Shown here: piece by piece, positions 10,129 through 63,251 of the stretch | How positions within the stretch are numbered: position 1 is the stretch's first letter | How the letters are laid out: every line of letters starts with the position of its first letter | Virus record (IMG/VR): IMGVR_UViG_3300031993_000017 | DNA from: a virus | Taxonomy: Duplodnaviria > Caudoviricetes | Direction: 5' to 3' (one strand) | DNA: 64,000 nucleotides | Notes under the pieces: generated by a model | What the model saw: the letters and a program-made list of their open reading frames with translations, nothing else | Databases searched by the model: none | What the model was told of the DNA's origin: nothing | Position numbers and translations under genes: made by a program

Positions 10129-11103
10129 TTAAATTTCTTCTGTGTTTATTTGGATGTATTCGCCAATAGCATCTAGCAGCTTCTTGGCAGATGTATATTC
10201 ATCTGTCTCGCCGCGACGACCGTCTTTAGGAAGACCTGTGTATCTGCTAGATCCACCTCCCTCGTCAGTTGTAACTACAACATCGTAATTCAAAGGATTA
10301 TCTGAATCCGGATAAATTGTAAGATGTTCTATCTCTGACCAATCACGGCCATTTCTGTCCCAACTAGCCGCCTCCCTGTCACGTGTTCTCTTACCGAAAT
10401 GTACAGGTATTTGATTTTCAATGAAGTACATCAAAAGGGGTCTTGGAAGCCAGCAATGTTTGTCCTCAAATGTTAATAATCCATTGGAAGACGGTATGTT
10501 GTTTTCAATTTCATGTGCAGTTCTTGTATCAACATACTTCTCATCATTTTTTACGCGTCTATCTATGGCAGAGAGTAGGTCATCGTAACCTTTGAACCGT
10601 AAGGTGTCAAATATTGCACCTTTAAGACCTCTCCAACCAATGATCGAAGCTGCGTAGTAGTATGTAAATAACTTATTCAAATCTTTGATTGCTTTTACAT
10701 TTACGTTACTACCTTTATCACGGTAGCCGATAAGTTTCTTGATGATAGCATCCGTAGGCTTGTATTGATCAATGTCCATAGCATTAAGTTCTGCGGAGTA
10801 GTCGTCTTCAGCCTGCTGCTTATCACGTTCATATTCAGATTTCAATTCTGACATATCATAGTAGAAATAGATGTCACCATATCGCTTTGTTATGTACTTT
10901 CCACCAATCTTTTTGATTGTAGATATCCATTCATCAACAGAAGTTGCATAACGAGAACTTTCTGGAGATAAAACAAAATTCCACTTGCCTTCTGAAATGG
11001 GTCTCAAGCTTGTACGACTGCCCCATGAAATTCCTAACTTGCTCTTAAGTCGTTCCATCGGATCACTCACGAATCTCTTTGAGCTTTTAATGTATCTCTT
11101 CAT
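10129..11103 (-). CDS. hypothetical protein with MKRYIKSS leader
   Basis: ORF; shared N-terminal motif; AACCTT box upstream. Confidence 0.8.
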   Translation of the reverse strand: MKRYIKSSKRFVSDPMERLKSKLGISWGSRTSLRPISEGKWNFVLSPESSRYATSVDEWISTIKKIGGKYITKRYGDIYFYYDMSELKSEYERDKQQAEDDYSAELNAMDIDQYKPTDAIIKKLIGYRDKGSNVNVKAIKDLNKLFTYYYAASIIGWRGLKGAIFDTLRFKGYDDLLSAIDRRVKNDEKYVDTRTAHEIENNIPSSNGLLTFEDKHCWLPRPLLMYFIENQIPVHFGKRTRDREAASWDRNGRDWSEIEHLTIYPDSDNPLNYDVVVTTDEGGGSSRYTGLPKDGRRGETDEYTSAKKLLDAIGEYIQINTEEI

Positions 11104-11160
11104 TGCCGTTCCATTATCCTTTCATTTTAATGTGTTACTACAATTCTATGTAAGGTTTTG

Positions 11161-11451
11161 TTACTGTAGGTCATTGACAATTTCTATACCATACCAAGAA
11201 GAAAGTTCTTTTGACAAATATGAAATAAATTTCTGTTCATCGAAAGGCGTTGTAATCATGCGGTCCCAACAATCTGCAAAATCAGGATCAGTAGCGCACA
11301 AGAAATCAATAACACTCCTTGCAGTTACAGCCCCATCTTTGAAAAATTCATTACCATCTTTTACAGCATAGCAGACACTTCTTGCAAGATCACGAGTTTC
11401 ATAGATTCTAGGTTCCGTATATTTCTTTGAGCTTTGTATGTATCTTTTCAT
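11161..11451 (-). CDS. hypothetical protein with MKRYIQSS leader
   Basis: ORF; shared N-terminal motif. Confidence 0.75.
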   Translation of the reverse strand: MKRYIQSSKKYTEPRIYETRDLARSVCYAVKDGNEFFKDGAVTARSVIDFLCATDPDFADCWDRMITTPFDEQKFISYLSKELSSWYGIEIVNDLQ

Positions 11452-11538
11452 GTTCTACTTCCTAATTATGAAACGTTATTATTCACATTCTAACTTATGC
11501 AATAAAATTAAAATTTTGAAGTATTTATTGTTCAACGC

Positions 11539-12782
11539 CTAAATATTACATGCGTTTACCACAATTGGATGTAACGCTACACCCTCTATCCCATTGCTGT
11601 AAGCGTTTGGGAATACTTTTTTAAGAATTTGCAAACTACCATTCACATCAGAATTGATTAACACACCGGAATCGCTTTTAAATAAACCACGATGAATCCT
11701 ACGAGATTTATTGTAATTCTCTTTAATTGGTAACTCATTATCTAAGAAACTTGTCCCACTTGTGTAACTTTCTTCTGTGAGCACTACAGATATACCATAT
11801 TCTTCAGCTTTGTATTTGATCATCTCCATCAATCTGTTATATGGTATCTGTATAAAAGATTGGTTAACTCTTTTGCTCATTTCTGATTTCTGTTTCCAAC
11901 ACTTATTGTTGCCTATAACTATTACAGAAACATCATCACTATGTGCCTTATCAACTATGTATCTACTTGCCTGATGTAAGTAGTTATCAATAATCTGATT
12001 TCTTTTCTCTGTTATACTTAGTATTCTTTTTGTTGAATACTGCTTATTCATCCTCATAGCAATTGACTTGTAGTGAGCTAATAATTTATTATAATATTTG
12101 TTCTCAGACTTCAGACCCTTACCGTTTATTATAAATGGTTGTTCACCAAAATTATTTGTTACGGTTGCTAAGTTATCTAAGCCTATGTCAATACTATAAT
12201 ATCTGTTATTATCGCATACTGTTTCTGGAATTTCTATATTATAAACCACCTCCAATTCAATATGATTTGCTTTAGGTATGAACCTTACTTGCTGAAATGA
12301 CACATAATTTTCATTGCTTATAAATAATGGTTTGATTGAAAAACCATTAAATACTTTGGGAAAATGTAAGATACCATTTTTCAAGTTTACTTCTTGGTTT
12401 GTAAGAGTTAAAACACATCTGTCGCTCTTATCTTTATACTTTGGCAATTTAGGTCTTCCTAAATACTTGTCTTTATTATTTTCCAATCCTTAATAGATTT
12501 GAAGAACGACTTCCAATTTTTATCGAGTAATCTTAATAACTGCTGTGCTGATTGTGCAGTTGGCATATTCTTATAGTCTGGATATTTCATATCAGCTTTT
12601 AATGTTTTGTCCAAGTCTTCATATCTTAACCAGTTGCCATTGCTTACAAACTCTTGTCTGATTAAATAGTTGGCATGGTTATACAAATTTTTTGCGTTAA
12701 AGCAAAAACTATCTATAAGAAGATAATAAGTATTCGATTGTTTAATTTTGTGTTTTTCTACTCTTTGAATTACCATATCCAT
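11539..12782 (-). pseudogene. tnpB: TnpB (IS200/IS605 family, tnpA-less IS1341-like), split by a -1 frameshift near 12480
   Basis: N-part AKNLYN...AQSAQQLL; C-part SIDIGLDNL (RuvC-I), EESYTS, INSDVNGSLQIL (RuvC-III); possible right end TCAA at 11516-11519. Confidence 0.85.
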
Positions 12783-12817
12783 TATTATCCTTTAATGATA
12801 GTAAATATTATTTAATG

Positions 12818-61771: not shown

Positions 61772-61835
61772 TTTAATCACCTGCCTTAAATACAAAAATG
61801 GGACTGATAAAACTATCAGCCCCACAGATACAAAA

Positions 61836-62120
61836 TCACCGACTAGAAGAATTAGGTTTTTTGTTCATTCGTTCTTCCCGTTCTCTCAGTTCTTTTGTAA
61901 AACTTTCCACATATTTTTTGCGAATAAATATAGGCTGTTCCATTATCCAATCAGCGGTCACGGCACCTTCTGATGCTCTTGCTATGAACAATGCTTCATC
62001 AACTATATTCTCATATAATTGTTTTCGCACTTCATCAAATGTTTTCCGTGCTCCCTGAATTTCTAGATCGTTTCCATTCCCGTAAATCTCCCAAGGTCGG
62101 ACGAAAAAATTTATCATCAT
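61836..62120 (-). CDS. tail/baseplate assembly chaperone C-terminal part (gp51/gpT-like), probably reached by frameshift
   Basis: 86-nt overlap with upstream ORF in its +1 frame, no clear RBS; WIMEQP...R..Y motif. Confidence 0.55.
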   Translation of the reverse strand: MMINFFVRPWEIYGNGNDLEIQGARKTFDEVRKQLYENIVDEALFIARASEGAVTADWIMEQPIFIRKKYVESFTKELREREERMNKKPNSSSR

Positions 62121-62838
62121 TCAGTGCGAAGAATCCTGCCTCCATGTTACCACATTTTGGACAACTACAATTACCGCCGACACGAAGACCATAATCTGTA
62201 AGTTCTCTTGCAACTTCCTTCAGAATCGTATAATCTGCAGGTGAAAATCTACTCTGAATGATTTGATATACTTCCATGGAAGTAAGTCCACTGGATTGAC
62301 CAATTGAATGAATCATCTGGCAAATCACCATCAACTCATCATTCTTCTCATTTGTAGATTTAATCTTTAATTCTCTTGCGGTTTTATTGTTTTGGATATC
62401 AAGCACTTCTCCGACACGGAGCAAATGTAAATGAACATCTTCATCAAAATCAATAAATTCATCTTTACTGATTACAACGTCATTTACAAATCCTTCAGGT
62501 AACATTTTCACTTCAATGTTTCTGAGATCAACACGAGTTTCAGTTGAAACGATTCCACATTTCGGACAAAATATAGAACTTGCTGTGTAATACGGACCGT
62601 AGTTTAAAATTCTTAATGCCCTGCAGATCCAAGCATAATCAATATCTAATAATTTACGGAAATCAATCTGCTCTTCGACTGCTTGCGGAAGAATCTTAGT
62701 CAACATAGTTTGTTGGAAATCTTCTGCGCTCACATAGTCCAATTCACTAGCCGTAGGTAAACTCTTTAATGTAAGGACATCTGGAATATCCTTATAAAGT
62801 CCTTTACCAAGAAGTTCTACTTTCTCTGTAATCGCCAT
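62035..62838 (-). CDS. tail/baseplate hub assembly chaperone (gp26-like, two CxxC)
   Basis: D..WI..ALR...YG, FCPKCG, CPKCG...KFFRP; upstream of tape measure. Confidence 0.65.
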   Translation of the reverse strand: MAITEKVELLGKGLYKDIPDVLTLKSLPTASELDYVSAEDFQQTMLTKILPQAVEEQIDFRKLLDIDYAWICRALRILNYGPYYTASSIFCPKCGIVSTETRVDLRNIEVKMLPEGFVNDVVISKDEFIDFDEDVHLHLLRVGEVLDIQNNKTARELKIKSTNEKNDELMVICQMIHSIGQSSGLTSMEVYQIIQSRFSPADYTILKEVARELTDYGLRVGGNCSCPKCGNMEAGFFALNDDKFFRPTLGDLREWKRSRNSGSTENI

Positions 62839-62951
62839 TATTCAATTTTCTCCTTTCAAAAACAGTTTTCTTGAATGGTTTTACAATATGATATAAGGTT
62901 AGATCAACTGATTTTGACCTAACCTCATTTTAACATTTTCTATTTGAATGT

Positions 62952-63251
62952 TTAGTATTCATTCTCATTTAAGATACTCTCCGGCGGAGTTTCTTCATAG
63001 ATATCATATCGCTTCAGTGCATCAGTTGTAAGCACCTGGTCGGCTAAGAACCAGCACCTCCCATAACCATCATCTACAACATCGTAGATATTTAAACCCT
63101 GTGGAACACTTCCGGGTTGAACTCCGTGATTAGTGCGATACCAATACAATCCTTCACGACCATAGGAAGAATATTCATCGGAAGGAGTTACAGGACGCTT
63201 CTCGAAACTTCGATTTCCGTATGAATAATTTGATTTGATATATCGTTTCAT
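62952..63251 (-). CDS. MKRYIKSN-leader protein, paralog of 12972-13334
   Basis: HGVQPGSVP...LTTDALKRYDI. Confidence 0.75.
   Translation of the reverse strand: MKRYIKSNYSYGNRSFEKRPVTPSDEYSSYGREGLYWYRTNHGVQPGSVPQGLNIYDVVDDGYGRCWFLADQVLTTDALKRYDIYEETPPESILNENEY

Follow-up and report, generated by a model that had tools for sequence, protein, structure and literature searches.

The stretch of DNA analysed here, hereafter the window, comprises 64,000 nucleotides of the IMG/VR virus record IMGVR_UViG_3300031993_000017 (Duplodnaviria; Caudoviricetes). Its GC content is ~36%, its genes lie almost all on the minus strand, and strong Shine-Dalgarno sites are found before their starts. Six minus-strand open reading frames (ORFs), with ATG starts at 11103, 11451, 13334, 14028, 42855 and 63251, encode proteins that begin with the same short peptide, M-K-R-Y-[I/V]-x-S, referred to below as the tag. 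These starts, listed in an initial annotation that had proposed the shared leader as a signal for loading proteins into the phage head, were confirmed. In a six-frame translation of the window, MKRY[I/V] occurs six times, every time at one of those ORF starts. The six tagged N-termini observed among the 84 called genes compare with a composition-based expectation of 0.0017, and the pattern [KR][KR]Y[IV]x[SAC] was not found in the interior of any window protein.

The genes carrying the exact tag differ considerably behind it. The protein encoded at 11161-11451 (96 residues) has a body unrelated to the other tagged proteins and gave no match in Pfam and PHROG searches. Three others, encoded at 12972-13334 (120 residues), 13354-14028 (224 residues) and 62952-63251 (99 residues), are paralogs that form one BLASTP cluster; a protein atlas search with the second of them gave no usable match. 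The remaining two represent separate families, namely A2 at 10129-11103 (324 residues) and A1 at 41938-42855 (305 residues), the latter with the second half of the tag, the putative cleavage site discussed below, duplicated in tandem. The exact tag is hence attached to four unrelated bodies in the window, so that the lack of relationship behind the leader suggested by the initial annotation holds for those four and not among the three paralogs. The DNA upstream of the six genes is mutually unrelated, and the Lys, Arg, Tyr, Ile and Ser codons of the six tags differ synonymously, which indicates conservation at the level of the peptide, as had been proposed. It is noted that a gene for an IS605/TnpB-type transposase (PHROG 506, 2e-35; 11539-12782, minus strand) lies between two pairs of tagged genes, with a 107-residue ORF overlapping its upstream end.

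Families A1 and A2 allow the tag to be followed through divergence. All 32 aligned A1 homologs, at 25-87% identity, start with M-K-R-Y-[I/V]-x-[A/S], in which M1 and Y4 are invariant and K2 and R3 nearly so. In A2, whose 30 aligned homologs are 35-58% identical, a start of the form M-K-x-hydrophobic-[I/V/L]-x-[S/A] is retained in 28. The tag is thus kept in orthologs of the two families at 25-58% identity while the remaining protein drifts. AlphaFold2 (AF2) models of both proteins show a disordered tag stretch followed by a folded body; in A1 residues 1-12 have a predicted local distance difference test score (pLDDT) of <50, and in A2 residues 1-7 are likewise <50 in a model with a mean pLDDT of 91. 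Fold searches with the two models (PDB Foldseek, VIA wide and BFVD) found nothing above background, the best hit having a Z of 6.4 over 88 residues, and a comparison of ten window proteins with Pfam and PHROGs returned a single faint PHROG match.

Relatives of this phage in IMG/VR comprise 54 contigs of up to 253 kb, with capsid proteins 56-74% identical to that of the window. They are uncultured phages from cattle-gut metagenomes, and their hosts are uncultured cattle-gut bacteria with strong Shine-Dalgarno sites. The DNA of the window is present nearly complete in one cattle-gut metagenome run, which may be its source. More than half of the sampled words of the window also occur in a run from a second cattle-gut study, and RNA runs contain only small shares. 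A DNA search against cultured phages gave no match to the window; by capsid protein, the nearest cultured phages (<30% identity) are Streptococcus phage GXN1, Bacillus phage HSE3, Listeria phage LIS04 and Bacillus phage SP-15.

In four complete relatives, the exact DNA pattern for M-K-R-Y-[I/V/M] has 18, 23, 6 and 21 matches. Every one of them is on the coding strand; the opposite strand has no match, and a reversed-pattern control likewise gave zero. The number of tagged genes per complete relative ranges from 6 to 27. In one of them, G004 (complete, 162.8 kb), 26 of 215 called genes are tagged and form two clusters, one of which lies ~10 kb downstream of the capsid gene. From 84 unique tagged ORFs, a consensus of eight residues was obtained, M-K-[R/K]-Y-[I/V]-[K/R]-[S/A]-[A/S]. 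Position 7 is S, A or C. Position 8, which was left unconstrained in the search, is A or S in 62 of the 84 and can also be N, and from position 9 onward there is no residue preference; the preference at position 8 and the sharp stop behind it define a discrete tag of exactly eight residues. The bodies of the 84 ORFs fall into 66 BLASTP clusters. They are mostly orphan and acidic, a few having leucine-rich repeats (LRR) or leucine-rich variant (LRV) repeats. Pfam recognised about 8 of 126 tagged proteins, as BspA-type LRR (LRR_5), LRV, DUF4116 and DUF5662, that is, only as repeat domains and families of unknown function, and PHROGs added nothing for this set. The DUF5662 match begins at residue 13, behind the tag. 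No mention of the shared motif was found in the literature searched. Two observations on gene arrangement may be added. In one relative (L034, 4856-16433), six LRV-repeat paralogs with the exact tag directly flank the protease and capsid genes on both sides. In relative G002 (L090, L091), several neighbouring small genes share a further leader, M-K-[R/K]-F-T-K-x-P...[I/V]-[K/T]-[A/S]-[S/A], with the small-residue motif lying 10-16 residues in.

The head genes of the window lie at 25928-28912 on the minus strand. The major capsid protein (25928-27397) matches the Gp23 family over residues 93-479 (Pfam PF07068, 1.5e-17). Directly upstream of its gene, at 27419-28912, is a prohead protease of the S77, or gp21, family fused to a coiled-coil scaffold (Pfam Peptidase_S77 PF03420, 1.5e-6, 28.3 bits against a cut-off of 27; PHROG head maturation protease, 4e-22), which we propose as the enzyme that would cut the tag. 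PHROG 138 and PHROG 207 also match the capsid protein and the protease, and the candidate catalytic residues H66 and S121 of the protease are invariant among the relatives. By these family assignments, the head is of the T4 type. Immediately downstream of the capsid gene is an inserted gene for an HNH endonuclease (PHROG 1271; 25071-25772, minus strand).

The tetrapeptide shape at the end of the tag, [I/V]-x-[A/S/G]-[small], is conserved in the capsid and protease-scaffold proteins at the places where T4-type head maturation cuts are expected. Just behind the protease domain, I-A-A-S at residues 161-164 is kept in 22 of 22 relatives, and near the scaffold C-terminus, at residue 455, I-T-A-S ([I/V]-T-A-S in the relatives) is kept in 18 of 22. 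The capsid protein has a basic propeptide of ~70 residues with repeated I-T-[A/S], in which 39 of 44 relatives retain the N-I-T-A-S found at residue 28; a conserved [I/V]-[T/M]-[A/G]-A-T-N-T at residues 69-75 directly precedes the conserved mature domain. The phage protease thus appears to make a non-Glu cut at [I/V]-x-[A/S/G] beside a small residue. Its own N-terminus contains I-K-S at residues 6-8, resembling a weak tag, and the N-terminus of T4 gp21 is likewise suspected to be tag-like (PMC9026906).

A concerted change of the tag was found in relative G005, whose capsid protein is 62% identical to that of the window. This genome has no exact M-K-R-Y tag. Instead, 27 ORFs start with M-K-[R/K]-L-[I/V]-[K/R]-[A/S], and every one of these lies on the coding strand. 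Position 4 is L in 22 of the 27, V in three, I in two and Y in none, whereas elsewhere Y occupies this position in 80 of 84. Since all tags of the genome have switched, chance, simple shared descent and an effect on the messenger RNA (mRNA) are argued against, and the change suggests a single co-evolving reader or binding partner. These data bear directly on the possibility that the tag has no function at the protein level and is either the remnant of one expanded gene family or an optimum of the mRNA or of translation start. Many tagged genes are indeed tandem paralogs, and A-rich codons after the ATG favour initiation. Such an origin would not explain why the peptide is fixed while synonymous codons vary freely, why the tag is found on unrelated Pfam folds and in 66 clusters, why conservation stops sharply at residue 8, or why the switch in G005 changes codons genome-wide yet keeps a hydrophobic residue. 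We regard this explanation as highly improbable and close to refuted.

The expression context was examined through a late-promoter-like sequence, A-A-C-C-T-T-R-Y-A-T (box A). A copy at 11148-11157 on the minus strand lies 53 nt before the 11103 start, and the window contains 9 matches against 0.74 expected, eight of the nine on the coding strand. Tail, baseplate and head genes have a relaxed form of the box 27-80 nt ahead of their starts. The same form is found upstream of the gene starting at 11103, the variant-leader gene starting at 38588, the operon starting at 15901, which holds the genes starting at 14817, 14028 and 13334, and the 43283-42855 pair, in which the 42855 gene follows 43283, itself behind box A. 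The proposal that several leader genes stand behind a box shared with structural genes is thereby upheld, and five of the six exact-tag genes in the window are behind box A or in the same gene run. This pattern fits co-expression of tagged and virion genes from a putative promoter. In G004 no exact box A was found, only looser A-C-C-T-T-type boxes mixed with sigma-70-like promoters. It should be mentioned that a second upstream box in the window, G-A-A-T-C-G-T-T-A(-T-T-G), stands before the helicase, HNH and other non-structural genes (e.g. 2734, 20192, 25772, 39735 and 44049); it differs from box A and may function as an early or middle promoter.

Based on the head module, the motif shared with capsid and scaffold, the modular attachment to unrelated bodies, the concerted change in G005 and the late-promoter-like box, we propose that the eight-residue tag is probably a T4-like leader for capsid targeting and cleavage, with a new sequence and a predicted non-Glu protease specificity. 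From sequence we infer the cleavage, its scissile bond, the packaging and the ejection that this proposal entails. The first half of the tag, M-K-R-Y, would serve as an address. Its reader would be a phage-encoded part of the prohead under assembly, probably the core or scaffold to which the protease-scaffold fusion gives rise. The second half, [I/V]-x-small-small, would be the cleavage site of the gp21-family (S77) prohead protease of the phage. Position 4 has no conservation at the capsid and scaffold sites and would thus belong to the address half rather than the cleavage half. Tagged proteins would join the prohead as it assembles and have their tag removed during head maturation; they would then remain in the DNA-filled head and enter the host along with the DNA. 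The capsid-targeting role put forward in the initial annotation is therefore the one best supported after the comparative tests, with packaging and cleavage by the prohead protease as its predicted parts.

The closest known system is the capsid-targeting sequence (CTS) of phage T4, which has 10-19 residues, of which the N-terminal ones target and the last ones direct cleavage by gp21; the T4 capsid propeptide and core proteins have several cleavage sites each, and the internal proteins of T-even phages share only the CTS (PMC3012670, PMC9026906, PMC5694885). Like the tag, the CTS of IPI, IPII, IPIII and Alt is a short N-terminal propeptide common to otherwise unrelated proteins, with an address part at the N-terminus and a processing part at the end, both of them predicted in the case of the tag. 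Both systems include a gp21-family protease, a Gp23-family capsid protein and client genes in variable tandem clusters; the several copies of the site in the T4 capsid propeptide and scaffold have putative counterparts here. On the other hand, the sequences differ and the tag has only eight residues. The T4 site ends in [L/I]-x-Glu, whereas the tag has no Glu and ends in the small residues A, S or G, and tests for sequence likeness and for a Glu site were both negative. T4 has a handful of clients, as compared to 6 to ~30 per genome in the tag clade, and the phages described here, known from sequence alone, differ further in their mostly acidic bodies and in the fusion of protease to scaffold. 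The tag is best seen as a new sequence serving what is probably a known mechanism, one that would work like the T4 CTS without being its sequence homolog. It had been suggested to be independent of T4; given the S77 gp21-family protease and the Gp23-family capsid protein, it is probably not, and a diverged version of the T4 mechanism is indicated.

Several points weigh against this proposal. The 25-30 clients per genome, ~12% of genes, are far above T4's handful. The tagged bodies are mostly acidic, unlike the basic IPII and IPIII of T4; in G004 their median isoelectric point (pI) is 4.5, compared with 5.1 for the remaining genes (p=0.003). Some tagged genes of G004 lie behind sigma-70-like promoters of early appearance. 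The cleavage specificity is deduced from the same conserved motifs that it is meant to explain, making the argument partly circular; the scissile bond might lie one residue earlier; and [I/V]-x-[A/S]-[small] is low in information and occurs at unconserved places too. A complex prediction with the protease domain (A3, residues 1-200) and a tagged N-terminus (A2, residues 1-45) gave a score of 0.02, which counts neither way. Alternatively, the tag could be an N-terminal address code, encoded by the phage and new to science, that is read by something other than the prohead and serves a system of timed degradation, export or compartmentation. More than 10% of the phage proteins could then be handled by that system, with the resemblance of the tag to sites in capsid and scaffold being secondary. 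We consider this broader possibility unlikely, if still worth keeping in view.

One specific form of timed handling would be a degron, in which an AAA+ protease or adaptor of the host or the phage (ClpXP- or ClpCP-type) reads the tag, and the small takeover proteins are short-lived and never packaged. The tag is short, basic and then hydrophobic, and lies in a disordered N-terminus; N-terminal motifs recognised by ClpX resemble it in general shape. Its clients are small acidic orphans in tandem arrays, as is typical of early takeover genes, and the sigma-70-like promoters before some of them would suit such a role. A degron, however, leaves unexplained why the end of the tag matches motifs conserved in the capsid propeptide and at the scaffold junction, why A or S is preferred at position 8, and why a box is shared with structural genes. 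If the reader belonged to the host, a change from Tyr to Leu in all tags of one lineage would not be expected. This explanation is rather unlikely in our estimate.

The tag could also be a processing site only, cut by a host peptidase such as Prp, or by the phage protease outside the head, to activate or release the proteins, with no loading into capsids. Bacillota phages borrow host Prp for short N-terminal leaders ending before A-S, and Prp trims the leaders of L27 and of the capsid and scaffold proteins of the staphylococcal phage 80alpha just before this pair (PMC9405229). The parallel extends to short N-terminal leaders in Bacillota phages. The Prp system differs in needing N-L-Q-F-F, in relying on a host cysteine protease, and in placing the leader on structural proteins only, without a set of cargo proteins. 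Its motif, M-L-x-x-(D/N)-L-Q-(F/L)-F followed by A-(S/H)-K-K (PMC9405229), is absent from the M-K-R-Y class, in which K or R takes the place of the required Phe; in a test for Prp/L27-type membership the main tag fell outside, with Y-I-[K/R] before its small residues. The phage moreover encodes its own protease with matching conserved sites, and the activity of prohead proteases is normally confined to the prohead interior (PMC5694885), which speaks against processing elsewhere. Processing without loading seems distinctly unlikely, even though in four looser leaders of the window (36841, 44632, 38588 and 14817) the A-S pair follows two hydrophobic residues, a resemblance to Prp sites.

These looser leaders, all on minus-strand genes, were part of the initial annotation's estimate of at least 10 tagged proteins in the window, which is too many: there are six with the exact tag, two supported variants (14817 and 44632) and two that are unproven (38588 and 36841). 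The exact tag is far above chance, but the loose motif beyond the main class shows no enrichment at N-termini in the window (7 of 78 genes, where 4.4 would be expected; p=0.16) and no significant enrichment in G004 (p=0.14), and its members were for this reason judged one by one. The protein encoded at 14047-14817 (256 residues) begins with the second-class leader M-K-I-T-K-R-I-L-A-S, which resembles the capsid protein's own N-terminus; support comes from two adjacent genes of relative G001 (L092) with near-identical leaders ending in I-T-A-S, and the C-terminal domain of the protein has homologs in G001 and G003. The leader M-R-K-C-V-F-A-S-S of the 121-residue protein at 44267-44632 is supported as an add-on. 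A search of 1.84 billion proteins found 85 homologs including the window's own copy, and for most of the 84 others the alignment begins at query residue 11-15, which pairs with residues 2-8 of the homolog, so that the first ~10 residues represent an added N-terminal extension. M-R-I-R-I-L-A-S, at the start of the 224-residue protein encoded at 37914-38588, has a box A 32 nt upstream and is a candidate; this protein has just two homologs, and their near identity makes its conservation uninformative. The weak candidate M-N-L-N-T-S-V-V-A-S-S (81 residues, 36596-36841) fits the loose motif only and also loosely resembles the host Prp/L27-type site (PMC9405229). No orthologs of the 38588, 44632 and 36841 proteins were found in five complete relatives.

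Another phage-specified destination or partner might be read by the same peptide, for example a membrane or export route, a replication compartment or a chaperone, rather than the capsid. The Tyr-to-Leu switch implies one reader without saying which, and the number of clients is unusually high. The tag does not have the hydrophobic core of at least 7 residues, the twin-arginine or the lipobox cysteine of a Sec, Tat or lipoprotein signal, and the sequence behind it is polar and unrelated. No candidate for alternative machinery was seen in the window, and the link of the motif to capsid and scaffold sites would be left unexplained. A destination of this kind is decidedly improbable.

Comparison with other systems places the proposed capsid-targeting leader in a wider setting. 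In the giant phages phiKZ, 201phi2-1 and SPN3US, many head-internal proteins likewise have N-terminal propeptides cut by a gp21-type protease, and paralogs can have identical N-termini; their propeptides differ from the tag in being mostly >100 residues long and in having the site [S/A/G]-x-E. To our knowledge, no single short tag is shared among them. Herpesvirus assemblin has maturation sites of the form (V/L/I)-x-A followed by S, at one of which the protease is released from its scaffold fusion. The predicted site of the tag phage has the same shape, the relationship being only distant, and we know of no short N-terminal cargo tag in the assemblin system. Phage prohead proteases have the assemblin fold, according to Cheng et al. 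(2004) as cited in PMC10052503. In Streptococcus phage GXN1, the capsid protein of which is 28% identical (L055/L096), four proteins share the leader M-R-L-[V/I]-[K/R]-L-[T/N]-E, at 98803, 132585, 132841 and 134401. Three of the four are encoded just downstream of the capsid gene, and the N-terminus of the protease contains L-T-E. In this cultured Streptococcus phage, the leader may act as a CTS of the Glu type, a lead that points to short leaders with the local protease motif at their end as a possible general feature of the wider head type.

Other features of the window include tail and baseplate genes at 46-62 kb and tail-fibre-like paralogs at 4-10 kb. Two adjacent minus-strand paralogs at 34057-34992 and 35048-36007 encode pentapeptide repeats and DUF5758 (Pfam ~3e-29 and ~3e-28). 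At 3569-3648, a tandem unit of ~12 nt (G-A-G-T-T-A-A-A-A-y-T) fills the 80-nt gap before the ORF start at 3568 on the minus strand.

If the capsid-targeting proposal is correct, the 25-30 proteins per genome that are packaged and injected into the host could be recognised by a single-line sequence rule throughout a clade of large, uncultured gut and rumen phages, and the tagged orphan genes would constitute a candidate pool for anti-defence and takeover factors. In addition, the cut site of a gp21-family protease would have shifted from Glu to small residues, narrowing the gap to herpesvirus assemblin. The genome-wide switch from Tyr to Leu would offer a natural handle for finding the receptor of the tag, and, as with T4, proteins of choice could be directed into the capsids of Bacillota-infecting phages by means of the eight-residue tag.

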